Shown here one piece after another: positions 4,628-56,144 of a stretch of 64,000 nt of DNA. This DNA is from Candidatus Moraniibacteriota bacterium (lineage in GTDB: Bacteria; Patescibacteriota; Minisyncoccia; Moranbacterales; UBA1568). Below the pieces are notes generated by a model. That model was not told the DNA's origin and made no database searches. It saw only the letters and a list, made by a program, of their open reading frames with translations. The stretch spans positions 177,706 to 241,705 of the forward strand of contig CAVURJ010000002.1 in NCBI GenBank assembly GCA_963743885.1, given 5' to 3'. Position 1 is the stretch's first letter; each line of letters opens with the position of its first letter. The position numbers and the translations under genes are program-made.

Positions 4628-5308
4628 ATGCATTTTTTCAAGGCGTTGGAACATCTCATCCGCGAATATGCCCACGAGGTCCCGCTCGAGTGGTTTGTGC
4701 TGCTCGGCTCGTTCGCGGAGGAGGTCATAAGTCCGATCCCGTCCGCGCTCATCATGGGGACGGCTGGGTCGATCGCGCTCATGCAGGGGGCTGTTCCTGG
4801 TTATCTCGTTTTTCTTGTGCTCCTTGGTAATATCGGCAAGACGTTTGGATCGTGGATATACTATTTCCTTGGCGACCGACTGGAAGATCTGCTCATCGGC
4901 AGGATCACGAAATTCTTTGGCGTGAAGCATGAGGAGATCGAGAATATCGGCAAGCGTTTCACCGGGCATCACTGGAAGGACGGTGGCATCCTCTTCATCT
5001 TGCGCGCGATGCCGTTCGTGCCGACGACGCCGGTCTCTATCGCTGCCGGTATCATCAAGATGGACAAGCGGATATTTCTTTTGGCGACGTATGCGGGCAA
5101 TGTCATGAAGGACCTCGTCTATATCTATGCGGGCTATGCCGGTCTGGCGAAGCTTCAGACACTCTGGCGGGAGATTATTCCGGTCAAGGCCGGCATCGAT
5201 ATCCTCGTCGCGATCGGCATCATCGCATTCCTGGTGTTCCTCTATATTCATCGCGGTCGCGGAAAAGAGCTCCTGGCTCGCTGTGCGAATCATCTGACGA
5301 AGAAATGA
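4628..5308 (+). CDS. DedA/SNARE-associated (VTT domain) membrane protein
   Basis: Multi-TM protein with DedA-like GxxxGxxxG-type motifs (GNIGKTFGSWIYYFLG). It overlaps uvrB by 4 bp (ATGA). Confidence 0.72.
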   Translation: MHFFKALEHLIREYAHEVPLEWFVLLGSFAEEVISPIPSALIMGTAGSIALMQGAVPGYLVFLVLLGNIGKTFGSWIYYFLGDRLEDLLIGRITKFFGVKHEEIENIGKRFTGHHWKDGGILFILRAMPFVPTTPVSIAAGIIKMDKRIFLLATYAGNVMKDLVYIYAGYAGLAKLQTLWREIIPVKAGIDILVAIGIIAFLVFLYIHRGRGKELLARCANHLTKK

Positions 5309-7365
5309 GTATGCCAACATTTGATCTCAAAAGCGAATATCAGCCTTCAGGTGATCAGCCGCAAGCGATCGCTGCTTTGGTGCGCGGACTGGAAGCGGGG
5401 ATGCCCAAGCAGACACTTCTCGGCGTGACCGGGTCCGGCAAGACGTTTACGATGGCCAATGTCATCGCGCAGTCTGGCAAGCCAGCGCTCGTCATTGCGC
5501 ACAACAAGACGCTCGCGGCACAGCTAGCTCAGGAATACCAGGTATTCTTTCCGGACCACGCTGTGCATTATTTCGTCTCCTACTATGATTACTACCAGCC
5601 GGAAGCGTACATGCCGGTGACGGATACCTATATTGAGAAGGACGCACAGATCAATGAGGAGATCGATCGGTTGCGCCATGCGTCGACCCAGTCGCTTCTC
5701 ACGCGCCGCGATACGATTATCGTGGCATCGGTCTCGTGCATTTACGGTCTCGGCAGTCCTGAAGAATACGAGCGATCGAACCTGCGGCTCGAGGTCGGTA
5801 TGCCGGCATCGCGCACGGAGCTCCTCCACAAACTCGTCTCCATCTTTTTCTCACGCACCAATGCTGATATCGCGCCGGGGCAGTTCCGGAGCCTCGGCAA
5901 TCGCATCGAGATCATGCCGATTTCGGAGAAATACATCTATCTACTCGAGATCGTCGGCGGACGTATCGGTGCCATTACCAAGATCGATCCGGTCTCACAG
6001 AAGATCCTCGAGACGCCCAAAGCGATTTTCCTTTTTCCAGCCAAACACTTCATCACGGACAAGGACCGGCAGGAACAGGCGCTCCAATCTATCGCGCTCG
6101 AGCTCGAGCTTCGGCTTAAGGAGCTTGAAGCGGATGGTAAGTTGCTCGAGGCGGAACGGCTCAAGCGCCGGACGAACTATGATCTCGCCATGATGCGTGA
6201 GATGGGTTATACCAATGGCATCGAGAACTACTCCCGCCATCTCTCAGGCAAAAGCTCCGGTGAGTCGCCAGAGACGCTTCTCTCGTATTTCCCGCGCACA
6301 GCAGATGGCAAGCCAGACTTCATCACGATCATCGATGAGTCGCACGTGACTTTGCCGCAGCTCCGCGGCATGTATGCTGGCGACCAATCTCGCAAGAAGA
6401 CGCTCGTCGAATATGGTTTCCGTCTGCCGAGCGCGCTCGACAACCGTCCGCTTCGCTTCGAAGAATTCGAGGCGCGTGTTGGTCAGGTGATTTTCACGTC
6501 GGCGACGCCTTCGGACTATGAGCGCGAGGCGAGCGGCCAGATCGTTGAACAGGTCATTCGTCCGACGGGACTCTTGGATCCGGAAGTCGAAGTGAAGCCG
6601 ATCCGTGAGAAGGGAGAATATCCTGGTCAGATACAGGACTTTATCGCACAGACGGAGATCGAGGTCGAGAAGGGTGGTCGCGTCATCGCGACGACCCTGA
6701 CCAAGAAGATGGCCGAGGACTTGAGCACGTACTTGAAGGATAAGAAGATCAAAGCCGAGTACCTCCACAGCGATGTGAAGACGATTGATCGTATCAAGAT
6801 CCTGACAGCGTTCCGCAAGGGGGAGTTCGACTGTATTGTCGGCGTCAATTTGCTCCGCGAAGGTCTCGACCTGCCGGAAGTGACCTTCATTGGTATCCTC
6901 GACGCGGACAAGGAAGGTTTCCTTCGATCCGAGACGTCGCTCATCCAGATCATCGGGCGCGCGGCTCGCAATGCGGCCGGTCGCGTCATCCTGTATGCGG
7001 AGTCAATCACTGGGTCGATGCGCTATGCGCTCGACGAGACAGCTCGCCGCCGGACGCTCCAGATCGCCTACAATACGGAGCATGGCATCACGCCGCAGAC
7101 GATCAAGAAGAACATTCATGATATCACTGAGGCGCTCGAAAGCGAGCATGACCGGGCGGTCCGGGCCAACGTCGTATTGGATAGGGAAGTGTTTGCTAAG
7201 GATCCGAAGAAGCTTATCCGTCTCAAGGAGCGGGAGATGCAGGATGCTGTGAAGGTTCTCGACTTCGAGACTGCCGCGATATTGAGGGATGAAATAGCGG
7301 CATTGGAAGCGATATCTTACAAAGGTAAAGGAAAGATGACGAAGCCCCGTAGCAAAGTTTCGTAA
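5305..7365 (+). CDS. uvrB: excinuclease ABC subunit B (UvrB)
   Basis: The N-terminus FDLKSEYQPSGDQPQAI, Walker A GVTGSGKTFT, beta-hairpin region YVSYYDYYQPEAY and C-terminal UVR coiled coil all match UvrB. Confidence 0.97.
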   Translation: MSMPTFDLKSEYQPSGDQPQAIAALVRGLEAGMPKQTLLGVTGSGKTFTMANVIAQSGKPALVIAHNKTLAAQLAQEYQVFFPDHAVHYFVSYYDYYQPEAYMPVTDTYIEKDAQINEEIDRLRHASTQSLLTRRDTIIVASVSCIYGLGSPEEYERSNLRLEVGMPASRTELLHKLVSIFFSRTNADIAPGQFRSLGNRIEIMPISEKYIYLLEIVGGRIGAITKIDPVSQKILETPKAIFLFPAKHFITDKDRQEQALQSIALELELRLKELEADGKLLEAERLKRRTNYDLAMMREMGYTNGIENYSRHLSGKSSGESPETLLSYFPRTADGKPDFITIIDESHVTLPQLRGMYAGDQSRKKTLVEYGFRLPSALDNRPLRFEEFEARVGQVIFTSATPSDYEREASGQIVEQVIRPTGLLDPEVEVKPIREKGEYPGQIQDFIAQTEIEVEKGGRVIATTLTKKMAEDLSTYLKDKKIKAEYLHSDVKTIDRIKILTAFRKGEFDCIVGVNLLREGLDLPEVTFIGILDADKEGFLRSETSLIQIIGRAARNAAGRVILYAESITGSMRYALDETARRRTLQIAYNTEHGITPQTIKKNIHDITEALESEHDRAVRANVVLDREVFAKDPKKLIRLKEREMQDAVKVLDFETAAILRDEIAALEAISYKGKGKMTKPRSKVS

Positions 7366-10453: not shown

Positions 10454-13009
10454 ATGAAAGAATCCAAGAAACACAAGGAACCATCTGCGATGATCTCTGT
10501 TCGTGGCGCCCGGACGCACAATCTCAAGAATATTTCCGTCGACATGCCGCGCAATGCCATGGTGGTCTTCACTGGGCTTTCTGGCTCGGGCAAGTCGTCG
10601 CTCGCGTTTGATACCATCTTCGCCGAGGGACAGCGCCGCTATGTCGAGTCGCTCTCCGCATATGCGCGCCAGTTCTTGAATACGATGCAGAAGCCGGATG
10701 TCGATGAGATCCTCGGCCTGTCGCCGGCCATCTCGATCGACCAGAAATCAGCAAGCCGGAATCCTCGTTCGACCGTCGCCACCATCACGGAGATCTATGA
10801 TTATCTCCGCGTGCTGTTTGCACGTCTCGGACGGCCGCACTGTCTCGAATGCGGACGCGAGATCCAGAAGCTGTCCGTCGAGGAGATGATCGAGATCGTC
10901 TCTGATAAGGTGAAGGCGACCAAGAAGAAGGAAGGCGCTCTCATCATCGCGGCACCGGTCGTGCGTGGCCGCAAGGGCGAGTATTATCAGCTGCTCTACA
11001 ATGCGCTCGGCAAGGGCTTCAGCGAGATCTTCCTCGATGGGGAGCGCAAGAGTTTGCGCGAGCGCGTCATCCTTTCTAAGAATAAGAAGCACGATATCGA
11101 TCTCATCGTCGACGAGATACCGCTTCAGGAGTTCGGGAAGTTTCCCGAGACGTCCGCTGAGCGGCTCTCGGAAGCGGTGGAGCGTTCGCTTGAGGAGAGC
11201 GAGGGTTTGGTGAATATCCGCATCGCTGGGGAGACGCTTGTACTTTCGTCCAAGTTCTCTTGCCCGTATGACGGCTTCTCCTATCCAGAGGTAGAGCCGC
11301 GGCTCTTCTCCTTCAATTCACCGTACGGTGCTTGCGAGGCGTGCAATGGTCTCGGCACCAAGCATTTCTTCGGCGATGAGCCATGTGACGTCTGCCATGG
11401 GTCGCGTCTGCGTCCGGAGGCACTCCACGTGAAGATTGGTGGGAAGAATATCGTCGAGCTGACAGCTATGACCACTGTCGAGGCCAAGGCGTTCTTTGAT
11501 GGTCTTGAGCTCTCTGAGCGCGAGCGGCAGATCGCATCCGTAGTGCTGCGCGAGGTGGGCGGCCGTCTGCAGTTCCTGCTCGATGTCGGCCTCGACTATC
11601 TCTCTCTCGGCCGCCGCGCCAATACACTCTCGGGCGGCGAAGCGCAGCGCATCCGTCTGGCATCCCAGCTTGGGTCCAAGTTGGTCGGTGCGCTCTATGT
11701 GCTCGACGAGCCGACGATCGGCCTCCACAGCCGTGACAATGACCGGCTCATCGCGACACTTCAGGCACTCCGCGATCTCGGCAATACTATCATCGTCGTC
11801 GAGCATGACGAGGATACGATCTTTGCGTCCGACTACATCGTCGATATCGGCCCTGGCGCCGGCGTGCACGGCGGCGAGGTCGTGGCCTCCGGCTATCTCG
11901 ATGATCTCCTGACAGCCAAGAAAAATACATCCGGATCACTCACGCTCGCGTACCTGCGCGGCGAAGAGCGGATCGCTATCCCGGAGAAGCGCCGTGGCAA
12001 GGAGAAAGGCGCGCTCAAGGTCCGCGGTGGCAATCTCTACAATATCAAGGGCATGGATCTCGATATCCCGCTCGGCCGCTTCGTCGCGATCACGGGCGTA
12101 TCCGGTTCGGGCAAGTCGACGCTCATGTATGAAATCGTCCACAAGAATCTCCAGGTTCGCCTCGATCGTCGCTATCGTGACAACAAGACGTTCAATTGCC
12201 AAGCATTCTCTGGATCGGAATATCTTTCCCGTGCCGTGCTCATCGATCAGAGCCCGATCGGTCGTACGCCGCGGTCCAACCCGGCGACGTATACCGGCGC
12301 GTGGACACATGTCCGCGATATGTTCGCTGCGACCGAGGAGGCCCGTGTGCGCGGCTGGAAGGCCGGCCGCTTCTCGTTCAACCGTCCCGGCGGACGCTGC
12401 GAGACGTGCGAGGGCAACGGTTTCATCGCGGTGGAGATGCACTTCTTGCCGACAGTCTATGTGGAGTGCGATGTCTGCAATGGCAAGCGCTTCACCAAAG
12501 AGACACTCGAAGTGAAGTACAAGCACAAGAGTGTCTATGACGTGCTTGAGATGACGATTGAGGAAGCGTACGCGTTCTTCTTCGATATTCCAGCGATCGC
12601 TGACCGGCTCAAGACCTTGAATGAAGTGGGCCTCGGCTACCTCAAGCTCGGCCAGAGCGCGACCACACTTTCGGGTGGCGAGGCGCAGCGCGTGAAGATC
12701 TCAAGCGAACTCTATCGCCAGCATGTCGAGCGCACTATCTACCTCCTCGACGAACCGACCATCGGGCTCCACTACGAGGATGTGAAGAAGCTTATAGAGA
12801 TCCTCGATCGCCTCGTGCAGAAGGGGAATACCGTCCTTGTCATCGAGCACAATATGGATCTCATCAAGTCTGCTGACTACGTGATCGATATCGGTCCCGA
12901 AGGCGGCGTCGGCGGCGGTCAGGTCGTCGCCTACGGCACGCCGGAAGAAGTCTCGCTCAAGAAGGCTTCGCATACGGGGATGTATCTCCGCAGAGTGCTC
13001 AAGCGCTAG
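10454..13009 (+). CDS. uvrA: excinuclease ABC subunit A paralog lacking the insertion domain (UvrA, 851 aa)
   Basis: Two ABC modules ([10 protein letters not shown] / [18 protein letters not shown] x2) and zinc-finger Cys pairs are present. Compared with the second uvrA in the window, about 100 aa are missing between [16 protein letters not shown] and CDVCHGSRL (the insertion domain). The UvrB-binding-domain-like segment is retained. Confidence 0.93.
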
Positions 13010-13013
13010 CGCG

Positions 13014-13048
13014 AGGTATCATGTATCTTGTATCAAGTAGTATGTATG
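13014..13048. promoter_or_regulatory. phased heptamer array (5 x nGTATnn), directly after the uvrA stop
   Basis: ggtatca tgtatct tgtatca agtagta tgtatgg: GTAT recurs every 7 bp. Confidence 0.6.
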
Positions 13049-13076
13049 GGGCTCACGAAACCCCTTTTTGCTTTTT
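13047..13076 (+). terminator. rho-independent terminator after uvrA
   Basis: ggggctcacgaaacccc, then tttttgcttttt. Confidence 0.65.
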
Positions 13077-13132: not shown

Positions 13133-13167
13133 TTCATACGAGATACAAAATACTAAATACCAAATAC
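13133..13167. promoter_or_regulatory. phased heptamer array (5 x nnnATAC), inverted partner of 13014
   Basis: ttcatac gagatac aaaatac taaatac caaatac. Confidence 0.6.
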
Positions 13168-13298
13168 GGTTCGGAAGGGGCTTTACAGTGTAGAGGAATC
13201 ATGCCACAATGGGCCGTTGCGAGTCAGTCAACATACAGGCTCAAAACCGCCATCTTCCCGGGCGTCGCGCGGGAATGTACTTTGAGAAGGAGTGAATC

Positions 13299-14061: not shown

Positions 14062-14100
14062 CCCCTGGAAACAGTAACATCGTTTCCCGGGGTCTTTTTT
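14062..14100 (+). terminator. rho-independent terminator after 13299..14030
   Basis: cccctggaaac ... gtttcccgggg 10-bp stem, then tcttttttat. Confidence 0.6.
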
Positions 14101-14132
14101 ATACATAATACGTAATACTGAATACAAGATAC
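14098..14132. promoter_or_regulatory. phased heptamer array (5 x nnAATAC)
   Basis: tttatac ataatac gtaatac tgaatac aagatac, between two terminator hairpins. Confidence 0.6.
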
Positions 14133-14156: not shown

Positions 14157-14158
14157 GT

Positions 14159-14207
14159 GGTATACTATATACATAGTTCTTCATACGTTATACATAATAC
14201 ATAATAC
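14159..14207. promoter_or_regulatory. phased heptamer array (7 units ATAC, one degenerate) overlapping the -10 tggtatact of gene 14222
   Basis: ATAC ends at 14165, 14172, (14179 degenerate), 14186, 14193, 14200, 14207: exact 7-bp phasing. Confidence 0.6.
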
Positions 14208-14221
14208 GTAATATAACTCTT

Positions 14222-32877: not shown

Positions 32878-33213
32878 ATGGCGACGAAAGTCTCGACGAT
32901 CGAATATATCGAGGATCAGCTGGCAGAGGTGCCGGAGGTGCGGTCGCGCAAGATGTTTGGCGAGTACGCGCTTTATGTCGGGGACAAGGTGGTGGCACTC
33001 GTTTGCGACGATACGCTCTATGTGAAGATCACAGAGCCGGGCCGGGCATATGTCGGGGATCGGTATGAGGAGGGGACAGCGTATCCGGGAGCCAAGCCGT
33101 CGATGCTCGTCGATGCCGATCTGATCGAGGACCGTGAGTGGCTCACCGACCTCATCCGTATCACGGCGGAAGCGCTACCGATGCTCAAGTCCAAGAAGCG
33201 GAAAGAATCGTAG
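32878..33213 (+). CDS. TfoX/Sxy N-terminal domain protein
   Basis: RKMFGEYALYVGDKVVALVCDDTLYVK is the TfoX_N pattern. Confidence 0.68.
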   Translation: MATKVSTIEYIEDQLAEVPEVRSRKMFGEYALYVGDKVVALVCDDTLYVKITEPGRAYVGDRYEEGTAYPGAKPSMLVDADLIEDREWLTDLIRITAEALPMLKSKKRKES

Positions 33214-43861: not shown

Positions 43862-44170
43862 GCGGCGCCGGCAGAAACAGGGAGAAGGGCTCATAGAGCT
43901 CTCCTCCCTTTCTTTTTTGCATAACGGGTATTCAACCCTATGTTCCCGTCACTCGCTCGGTAACGAAAGCTTACTTTCGTTACGCTCGCTCCGTTAGGGA
44001 ATAACGGGTATTTACCCCAGGGCAAGCCCTGGACCCAAGAAACGAACTGATGTTCGTTTCTTTCCGCGGCAAGCCGCGGGGTATTGAACCCGATTTTACC
44101 TGCACTGCGCTCGGAAATGAGAGCTAGCTCTCATTTCGCTCGCTTCGTTTGGTAATAAAAAAGACGCTAG
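43862..44170. repeat. mosaic cluster of palindromic hairpins (BIME-like), copy 1
   Basis: Five successive hairpins: gctcggtaacgaaagcttactttcgttacgctcgc; ccagggcaagccctgg; aagaaacgaactgatgttcgtttctt; ccgcggcaagccgcgg; gcgctcggaaatgagagctagctctcatttcgctcgc. They are interspersed with gggtatt(c/t)a(a)ccc direct motifs. Confidence 0.65.
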
Positions 44171-44183
44171 CACACACGTGGTG
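44146..44183 (-). terminator. minus-strand terminator after 44309..44650
   Basis: On the minus strand: gacgctagcacaccacgtgtgtgctagcgtc, then tttttt. Confidence 0.65.
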
Positions 44184-44308
44184 TGCTAGCGTCAAGTGGA
44201 CCGGCCTCGTTGAGGGGAAGGGAGGTGCCCCGCTCACCGCCCGTTTTGGAAACGGATGGAGAGCCGAGGCCGGATCCCGCGTGATCGCTGGATGTAAGCG
44301 GCCAGCTG

Positions 44309-44650
44309 CTAATCATAGTCATTGGCCGCAAGACGTTTGAAGTCGGTTGCCGGCAATGGCGGACGATGAGCAGTGTCGGTTGGCGGCAGGGTCGTCGTCG
44401 GATCGTAGCCGAGCTGCTTCTTCACTTTCTGCAGTGCTGCTCCGTAGAAGAAGCCGAAGTTCCCACTCCGGGATTTTTCCGAAGTCTCCGGCTGCAATGG
44501 TGTGCACTGGTGGATCGCTGCCGCAAGGATTGTCTTGAACGACTTCCGTGCGGAATCGGGACGTCCGAGTTCTGTTTCCCAGAGCTCGAGCGCCTTATTG
44601 ACGATACAGCGGACGGTGTCGTTTCCGTTGCCGCGAGCTGCCCGAGCCAT
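44309..44650 (-). CDS. small protein, possible ribbon-helix-helix-like N-terminus; paralog of the next gene
   Basis: SD aaggagg plus a minus-strand TTGACT-N17-TATAAT promoter upstream, and a hairpin plus T-run terminator downstream. The N-terminus TVRCIVNKALELWETELGRPDSARKSFKTILAAAI fits a beta-strand/helix/G-loop/helix RHH pattern (inference). Confidence 0.5.
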   Translation of the reverse strand: MARAARGNGNDTVRCIVNKALELWETELGRPDSARKSFKTILAAAIHQCTPLQPETSEKSRSGNFGFFYGAALQKVKKQLGYDPTTTLPPTDTAHRPPLPATDFKRLAANDYD

Positions 44651-44844: not shown

Positions 44845-45141
44845 TCAGCATAGGCTAGCCAAGATGAATCTTTCAGGGATTGGCTGACGGAACCTGAAGT
44901 AATCCGGCAGGCGCGATTTCTTTTCATCCTTTCTTGCGTGCTCCGTGAGCAGCGCTTTGGACAGTCGCTTTACACGATGGAAGAACTCTCTAGTTTGGAA
45001 AGTGCCGAGACGGCATTGAGCGATCGCTACATCATAGGCGTGTTTGAAGTCGGTCTCGAATGTCGAGAGGTCGTTTTCTTTGAGGACTTCAAAGACGCGT
45101 CTGGCGAGCTGTTTTGCATCGGCGTTCTTGCTAGTATACAT
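44845..45141 (-). CDS. small protein, paralog of 44309..44650
   Basis: Start at MYTSKNADAKQ, supported by SD ggagga 7 nt upstream. Shares the LELxE...AAI-QC motif with its neighbour. Has its own ggtgtatact -10 and hairpin plus T-run terminator. Confidence 0.5.
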   Translation of the reverse strand: MYTSKNADAKQLARRVFEVLKENDLSTFETDFKHAYDVAIAQCRLGTFQTREFFHRVKRLSKALLTEHARKDEKKSRLPDYFRFRQPIPERFILASLC

Positions 45142-45171
45142 CAGGTGATCCTCCGGGTTGTGAAATGACTC

Positions 45172-45180
45172 TCTGACAGT
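45172..45180 (-). promoter_or_regulatory. extended -10 ggtgtatact (minus strand) for 44845..45141
   Basis: Reverse complement of agtatacacc, about 30 nt upstream of the SD ggagga. Confidence 0.55.
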
Positions 45181-45369
45181 ATACACCTTTTTTACATTTC
45201 CGGGAGAGTCATGTATTATTGAGTGTCAATCCGAGATATACGCGTTATGTCCGGTAGTGAAATTTCGACTGGACACTTAGAGTCACTACAAGAGGATAAA
45301 TATTTCTGATAAGCAAGAATTAATCTGACTTCTTCGACTTTAAAAAGAATTGTCGAAGTTCTACTGGGT

Positions 45370-46839
45370 ATGCCGAAGCTCTGGGAAAAATCAGTAACGC
45401 TCGAAGCGTTTAAGAAAAAAAACAGGCTACCGGAAGTGCCGGGAGTGTATTTTTTCTTGGGAAAGAAGAAGGAGGTCCTCTATATCGGCAAGGCGACGAT
45501 TCTTCGTGACCGGGTGAAGAGCTATTTCTCGCAGGACATCATGGAGACGCGCGGGCCGAAGATTGCTCTTATGCTCGGGAAGATCCGGTCCATCGCGTAT
45601 CGGAAGACTGATTCGGTGCTTGAGGCGCTCATCCTCGAGACCAATCTCATCAAGGAGCATCAGCCGTCGTACAATACCGACCAGAAGGATGATAAGAGCT
45701 ACAATCATGTCGTCATCACGGATGAACTGTTCCCGCGCGTCTTGGTCATAAGAGGAAGAGATTTAGAAAAATATCCTCCTGTCATTCCCGCGAAGGCGGG
45801 AATCCAGAAAAAGAAATCCTGGATCCCGGGTCAAGCCCGGGATGACATAAGAATAAAATATTCATTCGGGCCGTTCCCATCGGGTGGCGGATTGCGTGAA
45901 GCGATGAAGATCGTGCGGAGGCTTTTCCCATATCGGGATACGTGCGTGCCAACGGACAGTCAACAGTCAACAGCTAACAGTCAACAGCGAACAGAGAACA
46001 ATCAGCAGTCAACAGCGAACAGAGAACAATCAGCAGTCAACAGTCAGCAGCTAATAGTTAGCAATGAACAAAAAGCAGTCATCAGTCAACGAAGAAAAAA
46101 GGCCGTCCCTCAAGCGTGTTTTAATAGGCAGATTGGTCTGTGTCCGGGAGTATGTACTGGTGAGATATCCGCTAAGGAATATGCACGGATAATCAATCAT
46201 ATCCGGCTGTTCTTCGAAGGACGGAAAAGTATGCTGGTGAAGCGGCTCGAGCGCGAGATGAAGGCGGCTGCCAAGGCGCTCGAGTTTGAGCGGGCTGGCG
46301 AGATCAAGAAGACGCTTTTCGGTCTGCAGCATATCCAGGATATGGCGCTTGTGAAGAATGACGAACGACTCACGACTCACGACTCACGACAGGGAGTGCG
46401 GATTGAAGCGTATGATGTGGCGCATCTCATGGGAGAGGCGTCGGTCGGTGTGATGACGGTCGTTTCCGGAAGTTATGCGGATACCGATGAGTATCGGCAG
46501 TTCAGGTTGCGAGGGGATCATAAGGGCAATGATCTCGCAGCGCTCGAGGAAATATTGTTCCGCCGCCTGAAGCATCCTGAGTGGGGACGGCCTGATGTCA
46601 TTGCGGTTGATGGATCATTCCTCCAGCTCGGCGTCGCTGAGCGCCTTTTTGACGGACTTCCTGAGAAGCCGCTTCTGGTTGGCGTTGTGAAGGACGCGCG
46701 ACACAAGGCGAAGGAGATCATCGGGTTGCCGGCGGGCTTCGCTCGGCTTGAGACTGATATATTGCTCGCGAATAACGAGGCACACCGCTTCGCTATCGCT
46801 TTTCATCGCAAGCGTCGCGGGAAGGAATTCTTGAAGTAA
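45370..46839 (+). CDS. uvrC: excinuclease ABC subunit C (UvrC), short form with two in-frame repeat insertions
   Basis: GIY-YIG domain (GVYFFLGKKKEVLYIGKA), Cys motif FPYRDTC ... CFNRQIGLCPGVC, UVR domain (EMKAAAKALEFERAGEIKK) and the RNase H-like endonuclease domain (RIEAYDVAHLMGEA). The C-terminal HhH2 domain is absent or short. Confidence 0.92.
   Translation: MPKLWEKSVTLEAFKKKNRLPEVPGVYFFLGKKKEVLYIGKATILRDRVKSYFSQDIMETRGPKIALMLGKIRSIAYRKTDSVLEALILETNLIKEHQPSYNTDQKDDKSYNHVVITDELFPRVLVIRGRDLEKYPPVIPAKAGIQKKKSWIPGQARDDIRIKYSFGPFPSGGGLREAMKIVRRLFPYRDTCVPTDSQQSTANSQQRTENNQQSTANREQSAVNSQQLIVSNEQKAVISQRRKKAVPQACFNRQIGLCPGVCTGEISAKEYARIINHIRLFFEGRKSMLVKRLEREMKAAAKALEFERAGEIKKTLFGLQHIQDMALVKNDERLTTHDSRQGVRIEAYDVAHLMGEASVGVMTVVSGSYADTDEYRQFRLRGDHKGNDLAALEEILFRRLKHPEWGRPDVIAVDGSFLQLGVAERLFDGLPEKPLLVGVVKDARHKAKEIIGLPAGFARLETDILLANNEAHRFAIAFHRKRRGKEFLK
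45781..45846 (+). repeat. 66-bp palindromic element inserted in-frame in uvrC (translates as VIPAKAGIQKKKSWIPGQARDD)
   Basis: gtcattcccgcgaaggcgggaatccag ... ctggatcccgggtcaagcccgggatgac: two inverted similar halves, each itself a hairpin. It replaces the roughly 8-aa loop that E. coli UvrC has between the GIY-YIG domain and FGPFP. Confidence 0.65.
45957..46095 (+). repeat. tandem repeat block inside uvrC (28-bp unit x2 perfect, plus degenerate cagtcaacag sub-repeats)
   Basis: cagtcaacagcgaacagagaacaatcag occurs twice in tandem at about 45978-46033. The block is read as QQSTANSQQRTENNQQSTANREQSAVNSQQ and expands the loop inside the UvrC Cys motif from about 11 to about 57 aa. Confidence 0.8.
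46366..46388 (+). repeat. heptamer tandem repeat (cgactca)x3 inside uvrC
   Basis: cgactcacgactcacgactcacgac encodes TTHDSR. Confidence 0.8.
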
Positions 46840-47037: not shown

Positions 47038-47305
47038 TTTGTATTTTGTAGAGACTTCATTCTGAAGCCTTTCCCGAGGCCAGAATCTTCCGGAGAAACT
47101 CTGGAGTCCGAGCGGGCACGGTTCCGAAGGAGAGCAAGGACGGAAGGTAATGGGACCGCCACGCCGGGGCGGGACCATGATTCTCCGGAAGGTTGCTGGT
47201 CCGAGTGGGAAGGCGAGTCGCGGCAGGAGTCTTTACAGCATCTTAAAAAGAGAGTACACTGGAAAGCAATTCTGCGTTTTTCCATCCTTCCAAGAACAAC
47301 GCCCT

Positions 47306-50104
47306 ATGTCAGGCAAGAAATCGGTGATTGAGGTACGCGGCGCGCGGGTCAACAATCTGAAGAATATAGACGTCGACATACCGCGCGATGCGCTGGTTGT
47401 CATCACTGGGCTTTCCGGTTCCGGCAAGTCATCCCTGGCTTTTGATACTCTCTTTGCGGAAGCGAATCGGCGATATGTCGAGTCGCTTTCTTCGTATGCG
47501 CGCAATTTCCTCGATGGTTTTGAGAAGCCGGACGTCGATGCGATTCGCAATCTCTCGCCGGCCATCTCGATTGATCAGAAGAGCGTGTCGCGTTCTCCGC
47601 GTTCGACGGTCGGTACCATGACCGAAGTCTATGACTATCTGCGCGTGCTCTTTGCCAAGTTGGGCGTGCCGCATTGCCCGAAGTGCGGCAATCTGCTCGC
47701 GCGCAAGAGTGTCCGCGAGATCCTCGAGGAGATCCTCCTCTTTCCTGACAAGACACCGCTCGTCTTCCTCGCTGAGAGTCCGCTTTTCGTCGGTAAGACG
47801 GAAAAGGAAGCGCTCCAGCTCGTGAACGGCTGGGGATACGTCAAGGCATGTGTACGCGGCGAGATCATGCCGATCGCCGAGGCTATGGCAGCTGCATCAT
47901 CCGAGTCGGCTGACGGTGTCATGGCAGTGATCGACCGGCTCGTGCTCGATCGTGAGCGCCCAGACAAGGAGCGCATCCTCGATTCGCTCCAGACAGCGTT
48001 TCAGGTGGGCCAGGGGACGCTCCTCTTGCGCGTGAATGGCGATGAGGAGATACGGAGCTACAACGAGGAATACCGCTGCGAGGCGTGCGGCATCCATTTG
48101 CCTGAGTTCACTCCGAGTCATTTTTCATTCAACAATCCAGAAGGCGCGTGCGCGAAGTGCGCGGGCTTGGGCGTGACGCTCGAGTTTGATCCGGAGCTCG
48201 TCATCCCGAACAAGAATCTATCGCTATCTGAAGGAGCGATCCGTCCGTGGAGCAAGATGAATGGCGACCGTCCTGGGGGCAACGGGCATATGGCTCAGCT
48301 GCGCGACCTCGCGAAGCGTATGAAGTTCTCGCTCGATGATCCGATCAAGAAGCTTTCGACGAAGCAGTATGCCGCCGTGCTCCATGGCGAGACAAATGGA
48401 AAGGAAGATGCCTTCCCGGGTGTCATCGCGCTCCTCGAGCGCAAGTATCGCGAGACGCGCTCCGATCATCTGCGTGCCGAGATTGAAGAGTATATGCTGA
48501 CCAAGGTCTGTCCGGAATGCAGGGGGAGGCGCCTCTCGAAGGCGTCGCTCGCCGTGCGTCTTGGTGGGTATTCCATCGATGATCTCGTGCAGCTTTCTGC
48601 TGAGAATTTCCTCTCAGTGTTGCCGGCGTTCCGCACAGCGCTTTTGCCACAGGGGGAGAAGCGCCTCATCGAGCCGCTCTTCCGTGAGATGGATGTGCGT
48701 ATGAAGGCAGTGGAGAAGGTGGGTCTCGGTTACCTTGAGCTCTGTCGGAGTGCCGATACACTCTCGGGTGGCGAGGCACAGCGCATCCGACTGTCGGTCC
48801 AGATGAAGTCTGGTCTTTCTGGCATCATCTATGTTCTTGATGAACCGTCGGTCGGGCTCCACAGCCGCGATACGGAGCGGCTCATCAATGCACTTGAAGA
48901 CTTGCGCGGTGCGAACAACTCGCTCGTCGTCGTCGAGCACGATGTCGCGATCATGCGCCGGGCCGACTATATCATCGACATGGGGCCAGGCGCTGGTAGC
49001 GAGGGTGGCGAGGTCATCTTTGCCGGTACGCCGGACAAGCTCCTCCGCTCGAAGCTTCTGACTGGCCAGTATCTTTCCGGCAAGCGCCAGGTTTCTGATA
49101 AGAAGAAGACGCGCAAGGGGAGCGGTGATTTCATCTCCGTCATCGGGGCGTCCGAGCACAATCTGAAGGATGTCGACGTGAAGCTGCCGCTCGGCATGAT
49201 GGTTGCGGTGTCGGGTGTGTCTGGTTCCGGCAAGTCATCGCTCGTGCACGATATTCTCGCCCGGGCGCTCTCCAAGCATTTCTATCATGCCAAGACTGAG
49301 CCGGGAGCCCACAAGAAGATCGAGGGTCTGGGCAATATTGATAAAGTGATCTCCGTCAATCAGGATCCGATCGGCCGCACGCCTCGCTCCAATGCGGCGA
49401 CGTATACGGGCGTCTTCAGCCTGATTCGTGATCTGTATGCAGCGACCTCAGAAGCGGAGCGCGAGAAGTATTCCGCGAGCCATTTCTCCTTCAATATGCG
49501 CGGCGGACGTTGCGAGGCGTGTCAGGGCGGCGGGCTCAAGAAGATCGAGATGTATCTCCTGCCGGATGTCTATGTGCCGTGCGAGGTCTGCCAGGGGACG
49601 CGCTACAACGCGAAGACGCTCTCTATCGAGTATCGCGGTATGAATATCGCTCAGGTGCTCCGTATGACCGTGTCCGAGGCGCGGCGGTTCTTCCTCGACC
49701 AACCGATGATCGAGGAGAAGCTCCGAGTGCTCGAGGAAGTCGGTCTCGGATACCTCGTTCTCGGCCAGAGTGCGACCAATCTTTCCGGCGGTGAGGCGCA
49801 GCGTATCAAGCTTGCGACCGAGCTTGCCCGCAAGTCGACCGGCAAGACACTCTATATATTGGATGAGCCGACGATCGGTCTGCACTTCGAGGATGTACGC
49901 CGGCTCTTGGAGGTGCTTGAGGCACTCGTCGACAAGGGCAATACTGTGCTCGTGGTTGAACACAACATTGACGTCATCAGCGCTGCGGACTGGGTGATCG
50001 AGCTCGGTCCTGATGGTGGTGAGAAGGGTGGCGAGCTAGTCTTCTCTGGACCGCCGGAAAGACTGAAGGCTTGCAAGAAGAGCTTTACCTCAAAATACTT
50101 GTAA
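47306..50104 (+). CDS. uvrA: excinuclease ABC subunit A (UvrA, full-length 932 aa)
   Basis: Start at [20 protein letters not shown] (ORF 47150 trimmed). Both ABC modules, the UvrB-binding domain and the insertion domain (about 110 aa between GLG and [10 protein letters not shown]) are present. Confidence 0.95.
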
Positions 50105-50217
50105 GAATTTTTAATTTTATAATTTTAAATTTTTAAAGAATCTCTGAATTTTCAATATTTAAACATTCAGTAATTCTGGAATTATTTTAAAATTAGAAAT
50201 TTAAAATTTAAAATTTC
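50105..50217. promoter_or_regulatory. AT-rich 7-bp periodic tracts (aatttt / aaattta units) between uvrA and 50223
   Basis: aaattta aaattta aaatttc perfect at about 50197-50217; aatttt starts at 50106, 50113, 50121, 50128. Confidence 0.45.
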
Positions 50218-51223: not shown

Positions 51224-52444
51224 ATGCCGAAATTTTTATATACTGCGAAGAATATCGCGACTGGCGAGACGTCGGGTGGCGAGATGGAGGCGAAGGACGA
51301 GAAGTCGCTTGCCCAGGATCTGCGCTCGCAGGGGCTCTTGCTCACATCCCACGATGAGATCAAGGAGGTTGCTGGTATCAGTGTCAAGTTTTTTGATCGC
51401 TTCAAAACCGTTCCGCTCAAGGAGAAGATGACGTTCACACGCAATCTTTCCGTCATGGTCTCATCCGGACTGACGGTGTCGCGCGCTATCCATAACCTGA
51501 GCGCACAGACGCAGAACAAGACATTCCGTACTATTCTGGACAATGTCTATGATGACCTGCAGTCTGGCAAGACGCTTTCCGAAGGCTTGGCGAAGTACCC
51601 GGCTGTTTTCAGTGAGCTGTACGTCAATATGATCTATGTCGGAGAGGTGTCTGGCAATCTCGAGGAAGTACTCGATATCTTGGCGCTCCAGCTCGAGAAA
51701 GAGAATGATCTCCTTTCCAAGGTGCGCGGCGCGCTCATCTATCCAGCCGTCATCGTCTTCGCGATGGTCGGCATCGGTATCTTCATGCTTACCTATATCC
51801 TGCCGAAGATCACGAGCACGTTCAAGGATATGAATGTCGAGCTGCCGGCGTCGACCCGCGCTATCATGGGAGCGAGCGATTTTATCCGTGGGCATGCTAT
51901 TCTTACACTGCTTCTCTTCGTCGGTATCACTATCGGGGTAAGGGTTTTCGCCGGCACGGCTCCTGGCAAGCGTTTCTTCCATTTTCTCTATACCCGCATG
52001 CCGATCGTCGGGGATATTGTCATCAAGGTGAATGTTGCCCGTTTCGCCCGTATCTACAGCTCGCTTCTCAAATCCGGTGTTTCGGTCGTCAATTCGCTCA
52101 CTATCGTCTCGAAGACGCTCGACAATGTCTATTACAAAGATGCGATCGGGGAGGCGATCGGCGAGATCCAGAAGGGTGTCGACCTTTCCAAGGTCATTGG
52201 GAGGTACCCAAAGATTTTCCCAATTATCGTCCCACAGATTATTGAGGTAGGCGAGGAGACCGGTAAGACGGAAATAGTGCTTCAGCGTCTGGCGGAATTC
52301 TATGAGGAGGAAGTCTCGCAGATCACTAAGAACATGTCCTCAATCGTTGAGCCGATCCTCATGCTGCTCATCGGCGGCGGTGTTGGATTCTTCGCGGTGG
52401 CGATGCTACAGCCGATGTATAGCGTGATGGAAAATATCAAATAA
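51224..52444 (+). CDS. pilC: type IV pilus assembly platform protein PilC (GspF family)
   Basis: The N-terminus MPKFLYTAKNIATGETSGGEMEAKDEKSLAQDLRSQGLLL, two T2SSF repeats and three TM helices match PilC. Confidence 0.9.
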   Translation: MPKFLYTAKNIATGETSGGEMEAKDEKSLAQDLRSQGLLLTSHDEIKEVAGISVKFFDRFKTVPLKEKMTFTRNLSVMVSSGLTVSRAIHNLSAQTQNKTFRTILDNVYDDLQSGKTLSEGLAKYPAVFSELYVNMIYVGEVSGNLEEVLDILALQLEKENDLLSKVRGALIYPAVIVFAMVGIGIFMLTYILPKITSTFKDMNVELPASTRAIMGASDFIRGHAILTLLLFVGITIGVRVFAGTAPGKRFFHFLYTRMPIVGDIVIKVNVARFARIYSSLLKSGVSVVNSLTIVSKTLDNVYYKDAIGEAIGEIQKGVDLSKVIGRYPKIFPIIVPQIIEVGEETGKTEIVLQRLAEFYEEEVSQITKNMSSIVEPILMLLIGGGVGFFAVAMLQPMYSVMENIK

Positions 52445-52449
52445 AAAAA

Positions 52450-52484
52450 GTATAGCGTATATCGTATCAAGTATCTCGTATGGA
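52450..52484. promoter_or_regulatory. phased heptamer array (5 x GTATnnn) directly after the pilC stop
   Basis: gtatagc gtatatc gtatcaa gtatctc gtatgga. Confidence 0.65.
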
Positions 52485-52505
52485 TGCGAAATACGGGAGT
52501 CCCTT

Positions 52506-53900
52506 ATGTCTTTTCTTATACAAAATACAAAATACAAAATACAGGATACGGGACTGAAGGGTTTCACGCTCATCGAGACGCTCGTGTTTCTCTTTGTCTT
52601 TTCATTGGTTTCAATCGTCTTTTATCAGGCGTATGCAACTGGAATACGGACGATTATCGAGACGAAGAACCGTCTCGGCGCGACAGCGCTTGCCAATCAG
52701 AAGATGGAGATAATCCGGAGTATCGCGTATGACGATATCGGTACGACAAGCGGCATTCCGAGCGGGACGCTCGCTCAAGATGAGACAATCAGTGTCAATA
52801 CGACCCGGTATCAGGTCCATACTTATGTCGGCCATGTCGATGACTTGTTTGATGGAGCGCTCGCTACCGGTACTGATAGCGTGCCGAATGATTACAAGCG
52901 CGTACGTCTAGAGGTCTCATGGGGTTCGGGCGGAACTGATCAGCAAGTCGTGATTTTCGGCAGATTCTCTCCGAATGGTATCGAGACGCCGGCTGGTGGC
53001 GGTATACTTTCTATCAACGTGCTTGATGCTTCAGGATCAGGAGTATCTGGTGCATCGGTACGTATCAGAAATCCATCTGAGTCGGTGGATTTGACTGCGA
53101 TTTCTGACCTGACCGGAAACGTCACTTCGGTCGGTGCCCCGGCTGGATCGCAGAATTATGAGCTGACTGTCTCCAAATCAGGCTATTATGGCGCGCAGAC
53201 CTATGCACCGACAGCATCGTTTACGCCAGTGGACATCCACGCCTCGGTTGTTGATGCTGCACTCAACCAGGCGACAATCGTGATGGATCGGTACGCTGAT
53301 ATCAGTCTTCATTCCGTGGATTCTTTTGGTACCGATGTTCCAGGGGTTGATATGGATATCGAAGGCGGTCGTCATTTTGGTACGAATGTCACGGGTGCAC
53401 CTCCCGTAGTATCAGAGACGTATAGCTTTTCGGACAGTATCACGACGGGTAGTTCCGGCGAGGAGGATATTCAGGATCAGAGCTACGGCACGTATACGGT
53501 GAGCAGTGTGTCTAAATCAGGTTATACCTTTTATAAGCTCTCTCCAGACGGGCCGGCCTATAATCAGCTTTCTGCCTTGGCTGGCGTGAACAATACTGTC
53601 TCGCTCGTTATGCTCGATAATGCCGTGAGTTCGCTCTGGGTAAAGGTGAATGATAAGAGCGTTCCGCCAGATCCTGTTTCGGGAGCATCCGTGCATCTTT
53701 CGGAGAGCATTTCAGGATATGATGCGACCGTCACGACGGATGCGTTCGGCTATGCATTTTTCCCGACGGCGCTGCCGGCGCTTGTCGCGGGAACGTATGA
53801 TCTTGAAGTAAGTGCGACTGGATTTGATACGGATACCGGAACGGTTTCGATCGGTGGAGCAGCGCTTGTCACGGAAACCGTATCGCTTCAAGCCGAATAG
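52506..53900 (+). CDS. large type IV pilin-like protein (prepilin N-terminal methylation motif)
   Basis: G/FTLIETLVFLFVFSLVS is a class III signal/N-methylation site. 464 aa, Thr/Ser/Gly/Val-rich beta-like body. The annotated 5-prime end is built from ATAC heptamer repeats, so the start is uncertain. Confidence 0.62.
   Translation: MSFLIQNTKYKIQDTGLKGFTLIETLVFLFVFSLVSIVFYQAYATGIRTIIETKNRLGATALANQKMEIIRSIAYDDIGTTSGIPSGTLAQDETISVNTTRYQVHTYVGHVDDLFDGALATGTDSVPNDYKRVRLEVSWGSGGTDQQVVIFGRFSPNGIETPAGGGILSINVLDASGSGVSGASVRIRNPSESVDLTAISDLTGNVTSVGAPAGSQNYELTVSKSGYYGAQTYAPTASFTPVDIHASVVDAALNQATIVMDRYADISLHSVDSFGTDVPGVDMDIEGGRHFGTNVTGAPPVVSETYSFSDSITTGSSGEEDIQDQSYGTYTVSSVSKSGYTFYKLSPDGPAYNQLSALAGVNNTVSLVMLDNAVSSLWVKVNDKSVPPDPVSGASVHLSESISGYDATVTTDAFGYAFFPTALPALVAGTYDLEVSATGFDTDTGTVSIGGAALVTETVSLQAE
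52514..52548. promoter_or_regulatory. phased heptamer array (5 x nnnATAC), inverted partner, inside the annotated 5-prime end of the pilin gene
   Basis: cttatac aaaatac aaaatac aaaatac aggatac. In frame 52506 it translates as IQNTKYKIQDT. Confidence 0.65.
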
Positions 53901-55979: not shown

Positions 55980-56007
55980 GGTATAGGGGTTAGGAGATAG
56001 GCTATAG
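55980..56007. promoter_or_regulatory. phased heptamer array (4 x ggTATAG-like) after the stop of 54529..55974
   Basis: ggtatag gggttag gagatag gctatag. Confidence 0.55.
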
Positions 56008-56043
56008 AAAAACAAGAAAGTTTTTAGTTTGAAAGTCTGCCAT

Positions 56044-56085
56044 CTATACCCTATACCCCATAACCTATCACCTTCGCGCTATAGG
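56044..56085. promoter_or_regulatory. phased heptamer array (CTATAcc-like, 6 units with one degenerate), inverted partner, upstream of the pilM promoter
   Basis: ctatacc ctatacc ccataac ctatcac (cttcgcg) ctatagg, then tggtatgat (-10) at 56104. Confidence 0.55.
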
Positions 56086-56144
56086 TTCATACGCGGATTA
56101 TTGTGGTATGATATAGAAAATTAGAGACAAACAAAAAAGCGAAA

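Follow-up and report, generated by a model that had tools for sequence, protein, structure and literature searches.

In plasmid R1, parC carries two sets of five iterons that flank a core and are bound by ParR; these iterons are 11 bp long and direct. Simple-sequence contingency loci include Neisseria opa, with CTCTT repeats in the signal-peptide region, and H. influenzae hmw, with 7-bp promoter repeats. Omega (ParB of pSM19035) binds 7-bp heptads in direct and convergent orientation, of which at least four contiguous copies are needed, with one small dimer per unit and cooperatively (PMC9499535). Direct repeats of the heptamer TAACTGA have been described in marine Beggiatoaceae, cyanobacteria and Bacteroidetes, and nucleic-acid-binding proteins were proposed for them (MacGregor 2015, PMC4679880). 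We present here an element that resembles each of these in part. It lies at the junction between pilC and a type IV pilin-like gene in a 64,000-nt stretch of a Candidatus Moraniibacteriota genome (contig CAVURJ010000002.1), referred to below as the window. The element has two convergent arms, each of five 7-bp units that consist of GTAT, a pyrimidine and two free bases, the innermost unit being GTAT followed by purines. The best explanation of this junction, which we call site C, appears to be that it is one copy of a cis-element family conserved in this Moranbacteria-like lineage of Patescibacteria. On the sequence comparisons below, we take it to be a genuine cis-element that is under selection and belongs to a widespread type not described before; full-text literature searches returned no description of such arrays in Patescibacteria. 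Judged by the sequence itself, named homologs at 53-61% identity and features typical of the group, such as a DUF5671 gene, would place the window in Patescibacteria near Moranbacteria. These bacteria have tiny genomes and few recognisable regulators, and the control of their gene expression is almost unstudied. The element offers a handle on the control of pilus genes in organisms where type IV pili serve attachment and DNA uptake.

Arrays at the pilC-pilin junction and their orthologs

The junction has the following features.

pilC, 51224..52444 (+): T2SSF family (Pfam), the cistron 5' of the pilin-like gene; stop codon TAA at 52442-44
Site C left arm, 52450..52484 (+): GTATAGC GTATATC GTATCAA GTATCTC GTATGGA; starts 5 nt past the pilC stop
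Site C spacer, 52485..52514 (+): 30 nt; ATAC at 52491-94, Shine-Dalgarno sequence (SD) GGGAG at 52496-500, ATG at 52506, T-rich codons TCT TTT CTT
Site C right arm, 52515..52549 (+): cttATAC aaaATAC aaaATAC aaaATAC aggATAC; contains ATACAAA x3
Pilin-like gene, 52506..53900 (+): 464 amino acids (aa); leader MSFLIQNTKYKIQDTGLKG, then FTLIE

Two syntenic relatives, reached via orphan proteins of the window, were used for comparison: L201, from a JGI metagenome, and L204, from a Logan assembly. Between L201 and the window the pilin is 78% and PilC 85% identical, and four-fold sites are 55% diverged; for L204 the four-fold divergence is 39%. The L201 pilC-pilin junction reads TAA GTATATC GTATACC GTATCTT GTATCTC GTATGAT gcggaatgcggatctct ATG TCTTTTCTT ATACAAA ATACAAA ATACAAA ATACGTG ATACGAG. 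All 5+5 units are kept, and none of the 40 core positions has changed (P=1e-14 at the neutral rate), whereas 6 of the 15 filler positions in the non-coding left arm have done so. The spacer shows indels and divergence 5' of the ATG, the extra (sixth) ATAC at 52491-94 is not conserved, and ATG TCT TTT CTT is identical. The 37 nt from the pilin ATG to the fourth ATAC are 100% identical in L201, synonymous sites included, compared with about 75% for the flanking coding DNA.

The comparison with L204 concerns two other sites in the window, A and B.

Site A left arm, 13016..13050 (+): GTATCAT GTATCTT GTATCAA GTAGTAT GTATGGG; 6 nt past the stop of a UvrA-like gene; runs into a terminator hairpin at 13047-13063
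Site A right arm (A2), 13133..13167 (+): five nnnATAC units with a T-tract before them; upstream of a conserved leader of about 130 nt and the open reading frame (ORF) 13299
Site B1, 14098..14132 (+): five nnnATAC units directly 3' of a terminator T-tract
Site B2, 14162..14214 (+): eight phased ATAC-type units, two of them degenerate; begins inside the extended -10-like element TGgTATACT

Site A is an inverted pair around a terminator. Its L204 counterpart reads GTATCAT GTATCTC GTATTAT GTAGTAT GCATGGG, followed by a terminator and then by ATACgtg ATACata ATACcga ATACatg ATGCtaa. It again has 5+5 units and retains the odd GTAGTAT unit, its spacer is 65 nt shorter than that of the window, and 2 of 40 core positions and 13 of 30 filler positions have changed. 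In L204, B1 has five units with partly degenerate cores and B2 has five units against eight in the window; the unit count is thus the same in L201/L204 at C, A and B1, with B2 as the exception. When the orthologous arrays of both relatives are pooled, 6 of 100 core positions have changed as compared with 31 of 75 filler positions (Fisher P=1.4e-8), and the filler changes at about the neutral rate. This disparity argues for purifying selection on the core. As judged from these alignments, purifying selection maintains the phased core, the mirrored arrangement of the arms and, for the most part, the number of units; the filler is approximately neutral and the spacer is not preserved. The same figures bear out the proposal of the first-pass annotation, which saw in a conserved core, strict phasing and free filler the probable mark of recognition by some factor.

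The statistics of the arms within the window are consistent with this picture. The window contains 6 exact chains of at least three GTAT or ATAC units at 7-bp phase, where 0.01 would be expected in a Markov-2 shuffle (about 600-fold), and the six GTAT arms of the window show 2 core-column mismatches compared with 51 filler-column mismatches (P=8e-17). When all arms are read in the GTAT orientation, position 5 is a pyrimidine in 21 of the 24 outer units and the filler of the fifth, innermost unit is always purine (GGG, GGA, GAA, GAA, AAA and AAG in the six arms); the orthologs retain both features. The core is GTAT(Y), with 4-5 of the 7 positions fixed, and positions 6-7 carry 0.14-0.36 bits. 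This mirror layout is the expected appearance of a single duplex-DNA site present in two orientations. In the window and the loci of the PilC relatives discussed below, intergenic 4-mer self-matches peak at 7, 14, 21 and 28 nt, a periodicity that coding DNA does not have. Arrays with any core are intergenic in 33 of 40 cases, although 93% of the DNA is ORF.

The first-pass annotation had described the pair at site C correctly as inverted and phased, and had placed the left array as we do, but its right array (52514-52548) must be moved one base to the right. It had also pointed to the annotated ATG 52506 between the arrays, and this start holds: there is no further in-frame ATG, GTG or TTG between the array and the cleavage motif, and an independent gene call in a second assembly gives the same start and an identical 464-aa product. 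The right arm is therefore translated within the cleavable prepilin leader. The ORF encodes MSFLIQNTKYKIQDTGLKG/FTLIETLV, with the cleavage site in the context GLKG/FTLIETLV, and has the marks of a class III type IV prepilin, namely a short basic leader ending in G, then F-T-L-I-E with Glu at +5; among relatives the leaders are hypervariable and 10-23 aa long. The earlier designation of this gene as the major pilin does not fit its product. In Pfam the protein scores 19.4 bits for N_methyl, below the cut-off of 21.2 bits, and 57.6 bits for CarboxypepD_reg, and the gene is followed by two more pilin-like genes, so that it heads a run of minor-pilin-like genes. For these reasons the 464-aa product looks like a large minor-type pilin. 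Between pilC and the pilin-like gene neither a sigma-70-like promoter nor an intrinsic terminator is predicted; a terminator is predicted upstream of pilC at 51155-73 and none downstream of it. The two genes are therefore probably co-transcribed, and the element at site C would be intercistronic.

Since the right arm is translated, the gain or loss of one ATACAAA unit by strand slippage would shift the pilin frame, as the first-pass annotation pointed out, and site C might be a contingency locus that switches the pilin on and off. The frame arithmetic is sound: a 7-nt unit in three perfect copies lies between the ATG and the mature pilin. Heptamer tracts also overlie the pilin start in two more distant relatives (L121 and L125), and Neisseria opa and H. 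influenzae hmw provide precedents. However, ATACAAA x3 and the 5+5 layout are identical in L201 despite 55% four-fold divergence, and the count is the same in the second assembly; a unit count that is identical in every assembly compared does not support a switch. Moreover, only three units are perfect and the 90% cluster of the pilin-like protein has a single member. By contrast, a heptamer-derived, Q-rich tract in uvrC does vary and is 19 aa longer in the window than in L201. In the window, three ATGs (52480, 52484 and 52506), one per reading frame, are all open through the ATAC array and leave one in frame with the pilin whatever the unit number, which would blunt any switch. We considered whether these ATGs are a slippage-proof design, but the arrangement is not conserved in L201 and is treated as coincidence. 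Taken together, a frameshift switch seems very improbable.

Distribution in Patescibacteria and the level at which the arms may act

A scan for (GTATnnn)4GTAT in one representative genome per GTDB species returned at least 120 loci. Many of the listed matches, in Bacteroidota, Chloroflexota and cyanobacteria, are plain perfect repeats. About 25 of the listed matches are from Patescibacteria (Saccharibacteria, Moranbacteria, Yanofskybacteria, Paceibacteria and others). Among the matches listed, filler diversity is 0.76 in the arrays of Patescibacteria and 0.38 in the others, and exactly five units are found in 38 of 43 Patescibacteria arrays with at least five units, compared with 44 of 98 elsewhere. 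The orientation of pairs within 250 bp, again among the matches listed, is 16:0, a GTAT array followed by an ATAC array and never the reverse. The partner arms, which the search pattern did not constrain, usually also have five perfect cores. These data bear on the notion that the arrays are a neutral heptanucleotide microsatellite, a functionless by-product of slippage. Heptanucleotide repeats have been reported, in Mrazek 2007 as cited in PMC4679880, to be the commonest long simple repeats in prokaryotes, and the plain repeats outside Patescibacteria and the intergenic periodicity of 7/14/21 nt, here and in relatives, would be accounted for. A neutral repeat should not, however, change in the filler and not in the core (P=1e-8 to 1e-16), hold its unit number fixed, be conserved at orthologous sites or occur in convergent pairs only. 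Selection on the core, as seen in the orthologs, rules such an origin out, and we strongly disfavour it. Some bacterial "heptanucleotide microsatellites" are evidently not neutral slippage products.

Based on crude ORF calls, the distance to the adjacent gene is 2-8 nt on the left of GTAT arms and 2-16 nt on the right of ATAC arms, and this flush placement against gene ends holds whichever strand the gene is on, single arrays included. In another Patescibacteria contig one 5+5 pair fills the 105-bp divergent spacer between tatD and rpiB, where the two arms cannot share one transcript; another pair fills a convergent spacer. The adjoining genes in other Patescibacteria are rpsH, rplF, rplO, rpsG, secY, tatD, rpiB, cysS and similar, and some arrays lie inside the ribosomal-protein (spc) operon (rpsH, rplF, rplO, rpsG, secY). 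Because these neighbours are housekeeping genes, a pilus regulon was rejected. Spacers of no more than 3-5 bp at some other loci led us to reject an invertible promoter. A role as a substitute for the SD was likewise dropped: among array-adjoining genes there is no significant excess of genes that lack one (2/15 vs 177/602, with crude start calls). In the Saccharibacteria contig L017, at 2895-2995 upstream of secY, the left arm consists of TAGnnnn units that start from the stop codon and put TAG in all three frames. Post-stop arrays as all-frame stops would fit such TAG cores, here and at site D of the window, but not GTAT cores.

Site D and a further site, E, are as follows.

Site D, 55980..56071 (+): GGTATAG GGGTTAG GAGATAG GCTATAG, 36 nt, CTATACC CTATACC CCATAAC CTATCAC; degenerate pair
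Site E, 50106..50216 (+): convergent AT-rich pair with an AAT/ATT core, AATTTTn x4 and nAAATTn x4; ends 6 nt before ATG 50223

To examine more distant relatives, 80 loci encoding PilC relatives were compared. In many of these genomes both the pilC-pilin and the pilX-pilM junctions carry 7-nt arrays, and the unit is specific to the genome and common to the two junctions: GAATCAn in L121, ACAACTn with GTTGT or AGTT in the partner arm in L126/L127, and AAAATnn with ATTTT in the partner arm in L125, L128 and L133. The pilC-pilin junction lacks an array in three relatives whose PilC is 72-74% identical. Sequence comparison thus indicates that the architecture is widespread and its core lineage-specific, GTAT being stable within the lineage of the window, L201 and L204 and turning over at longer distances. 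The pilX-pilM junctions of L125 (about 6700-6843) and L133 (about 10880-11020) have in common the AAAAATn / nATTTTn arms and the spacer motif tattcgcttcgctYataacttgt, which suggests that the whole element was vertically inherited there.

Several observations suggest that the arms are recognised as duplex DNA, each arm being the same site in opposite orientation, and this is the level of action that we favour. At site C the cores are kept where no hairpin forms: as RNA the arms do not pair (z=-0.9), and 2 of 12 facing filler positions are complementary. The mirror layout described above points the same way. Further, A2, B1 and the right arm of D lie 3' of terminators or upstream of extended -10-like elements and are unlikely to act as RNA. 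Across loci, the filler complementarity between arms (72) exceeds that of a between-locus shuffle (51, P=5e-4), but it is 73 after permutation within arms. Since the excess vanishes, selected arm-arm base pairing was rejected; the arms share a locus-specific unit, and pairing is not register-specific.

We propose, tentatively and with a confidence that approaches an even balance, that site C is a platform on which a protein occupies several sites in the DNA and so gates expression across the junction of pilC and the pilin-like gene. Each arm would serve as a cooperative platform for a putative protein that recognises specific sequence in duplex DNA with a register of 7 bp, and the arms would present it with one site in two opposite orientations. 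Once occupied, they would clamp the 100 bp that hold the pilC stop, the SD and the pilin start, and as a roadblock, insulator or operator the clamp would govern the share of transcription or translation that continues beyond pilC into the pilin-like genes. Such an element would work like an iteron or heptad operator array. A number of points weigh against this proposal. No candidate reader protein emerged, there being neither a ribbon-helix-helix (RHH) protein nor any other obvious partner within the 64-kb window. In this genome there are also 7-bp arrays built on different cores (sites D and E and in-frame tracts in uvrC), and the distant relatives have GAATCAn, ACAACTn or AAAATnn arrays at the same two pilus-operon junctions; one conserved protein that recognises GTAT therefore cannot account for all of these arrays. 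For the majority of convergent pairs outside the window, long hairpins between the arms are predicted (z -4 to -10), and an RNA or single-strand role is physically plausible for them; the arms of site A are also predicted to fold within this range. Finally, two copies in L017 are almost the same along about 190 bp, including the spacer (mean column identity 90% for the alignment as a whole), so that the element can also behave as a dispersed repeat.

The hairpins bring up the alternative that the element acts in the pilC-pilin mRNA, with a GUAU tract past the stop and an A/C-rich AUAC tract at the start. These might leave the translation-initiation region unstructured, bind a protein that covers about 7 nt (of the S1 or cold-shock type), or pair as the arms of a hairpin for translational coupling, processing or stability. 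The probable co-transcription of the two genes, the position of B2 in a 5' leader without an SD, and the invariance in L201 of the 37 nt from the pilin ATG, synonymous sites included, are all in keeping with this idea, as are arms that start 2-8 nt past stop codons and end 2-16 nt before start codons. Likewise, TAACTGA heptamers just 5' of start codons have been proposed as translational signals (PMC4679880). But as RNA, GUAU and AUAC are different motifs and are nevertheless kept as mirror images. The unpaired arms at site C, the lack of register-specific complementarity, the arms beyond terminators or upstream of promoter-like elements, the pair in a divergent spacer and the absence of a significant excess of SD-less genes among those preceded by arrays also speak against action at this level. 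We regard it as unlikely, though less so for the invariant 37 nt from the pilin ATG and for B2 in its leader without an SD, where a part in translation initiation, coupling or processing is most plausible.

The near-identical L017 copies, in turn, are what might be expected of a dispersed miniature inverted-repeat element (MITE, REPIN or Correia-like), the arms being transposase recognition sites and the pilin start having been captured inside one copy. These two copies, at 100-310 and 660-875, precede rpsH and rplF. Copies in L083 share fillers, several copies occur per genome with genome-specific units, and the elements are extragenic and locally clustered, with inverted arms. REPIN/RAYT systems show a like pattern, genome-specific and vertically inherited. 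Set against this, at fixed orthologous copies the filler drifts, but the cores and the number of units have outlasted a synonymous divergence of 39-55%, and such locus-by-locus retention points to constraint at the level of the host and not to the decay of a dead copy. The copies in the window share only cores and layout, no transposase is evident in the window ORF list and no target-site duplication was seen, although no systematic search was made. Pairs of 4+4 units in either orientation gave zero matches in 2.9 million viral contigs. We consider a mobile origin of this kind distinctly less probable than action as RNA.

A wider reading, which we think rather unlikely in this full form, would make the arrays a gene-boundary marking system of Patescibacteria, hitherto undescribed. 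The reader would be an oligomer that places five protomers or dimers on each arm of convergent 5 x 7-bp arrays, which lie flush with the ends of coding sequences at operon junctions (pilus, DNA-repair and ribosomal-protein). Its specificity would co-evolve with the core (GTAT here; GAAT, ACAAC or AAAAT in relatives), and across the genome it would insulate genes or set their expression. If this were so, such setting of expression would take place in organisms with very few classical regulators. The sharply specified element (GTATY+2, five per arm, convergent, flush) in several candidate phyla is in any case suitable bait for a new nucleic-acid-binding factor.

Other array sites and neighbouring features of the window

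The first-pass annotation had counted three other sites with the same architecture. Site A is a true inverted pair, but site B consists of two direct ATAC arrays and site D is a degenerate pair; site E is a fifth pair beyond those it counted. Site B2 ends 8 nt before ATG 14222, the start of a DUF5671 gene that has no SD. The two arms of site D (55980-56007 and 56044-56071) form a degenerate GTATAGG/CCTATAC pair placed 3' of the stop codon of a PilX-like gene and upstream of a promoter-like TGgTATGAT before pilM. This sequence (56094-56102) and TGgTATACT before the DUF5671 gene (14158-14166) are extended -10-like elements of the form TGnTAnnnT. L121, L124 and L149 have the pilM element as well, a hint that promoters independent of a -35 box are the norm here. 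Site E occupies the AT-rich spacer between uvrA and a 306-aa ORF. In its L201 counterpart (4979-5096) the layout is kept, with a five-unit left arm: AATTTCC AATTTCC AATATCT AATACCC AATAAAA, then ATATTAG GTATTAG GAATTAG.

Two UvrA-family genes lie within 40 kb, at 10454-13009 (851 aa) and 47150-50104 (984 aa), and an array element directly follows each of them (sites A and E). The leader of about 130 nt that separates A2 from ORF 13299 (13168-13298; 2150-2280 in L204) is far better kept than ORF 13299 itself, which shows 59-61% aa identity, encodes 243 aa and has no Pfam family. This leader ends in a strong SD. It has no Rfam match even at E<=1 and may be an undescribed cis-regulatory RNA. As for known RNA families generally, Rfam gave no match in the window, at sites A-C with permissive thresholds, or in seven related loci.

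In uvrC (45370-46839) in-frame 7-bp repeat tracts are found at 45956-46050 and 46365-46390. The first is ACAGTCA x13.6, including a perfect 28-bp x2.4 higher-order repeat, and encodes the Q-rich insert, which lies between conserved Cys residues; the second is ACGACTC x3.7. The same gene has a palindromic insert at 45780-45850 (cccgcgaaggcggg ... cccgggtcaagcccggg), translated VIPAKAGIQKKKSWIPGQARDD and absent from the L201 ortholog; this insert has the appearance of a hairpin repeat that entered a housekeeping gene in frame. About 300 bp of non-coding DNA at 43890-44200 are packed with hairpins, contain three copies of CGGGTATT(C/T)AACCC-like motifs and have no Rfam match. This region adjoins two paralogous-looking orphan ORFs of 113 aa on the minus strand, 44309-44650 and 44845-45186. 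A small TfoX_N-domain protein, of a competence-regulator family, is encoded at 32878-33213 in the same window as the type IV pilus cluster and has a homolog in L201.

Comparison with known systems

Contingency loci share with site C a unit that is not a multiple of three, located in the leader-coding or upstream region of a gene for a surface structure. Their tracts, however, are long, perfect and variable between strains, whereas here three units are perfect and the count is constant in all assemblies and relatives examined. Simple heptanucleotide repeats are tandem 7-nt units enriched intergenically near starts, as are the arrays described here; identity of the whole unit and a variable copy number, which slippage would be expected to produce, are not the pattern here.

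REP/REPIN sequences and Correia MITEs are likewise short, extragenic and genome-specific, have inverted arms, and are present many times over, frequently where the neighbouring genes are co-oriented or convergent. They may bring a terminator or promoter with them, and in mRNA they can form hairpins. Elements of the present type are multi-copy and extragenic as well; hairpins are predicted for most pairs and site A (z -4 to -10), though not for site C (z -0.9). The arms of REP and MITE sequences differ in being unique conserved sequences and not phased arrays of a 4-nt core, and their spread needs a RAYT or DDE transposase, neither of which is evident in the window ORF list, although no systematic search was made. 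Here, constraint appears at the level of the locus on fixed copies.

The TAACTGA repeats present a genome-specific heptamer, x2-6, that is intergenic, often lies a few nt before an SD-less start and occurs in ribosomal-protein operons (PMC4679880). There the whole unit is repeated and nearly all sets are direct, with one inverted set reported; the present arrays have a 4-5-nt core, convergent five-unit pairs and selection demonstrated through orthologs.

In architecture there is a parallel to omega, which needs at least four contiguous heptads in direct and convergent arrangement (PMC9499535); each arm here has five contiguous 7-bp units. The first-pass annotation had proposed recognition by an omega/ParR-type RHH protein, which would make the element an operator or centromere array. 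It had named the products of the ORFs at 44309 and 44845 as RHH-like candidates. Neither they nor ten other small ORFs of the window contain an RHH domain (Pfam), and for the 44309 product, an orphan, there are two homologs and a model that is all-helical but of low confidence (pLDDT 59). The window has no ParA gene and no plasmid or partition context, and similar arrays lie inside ribosomal-protein operons elsewhere. All 7 bases of omega heptads are conserved (WATCACW) and there is no spacer, whereas here only GTAT(Y) is fixed, that is 4-5 of 7 positions, and the arms are 30-85 bp apart. Omega heptads overlap promoters of the plasmid's own par/copy genes, together with an RHH gene and ParA; at site C no promoter is predicted and the neighbours are pilC and the pilin-like gene, and the sites as a group are chromosomal gene junctions (pilus, UvrA-like and DUF5671 here; ribosomal-protein operons elsewhere). 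We therefore consider binding by a member of that family highly doubtful. Like parC of R1, the element has five-plus-five arms around a short core. The omega/ParR analogy may be apt in the sense of "works like"; membership is not supported. None of the systems compared has all of the following: a core of 4-5 nt under selection next to neutral filler, a constant five units in each arm, pairs in the convergent orientation alone, and placement flush with gene ends.

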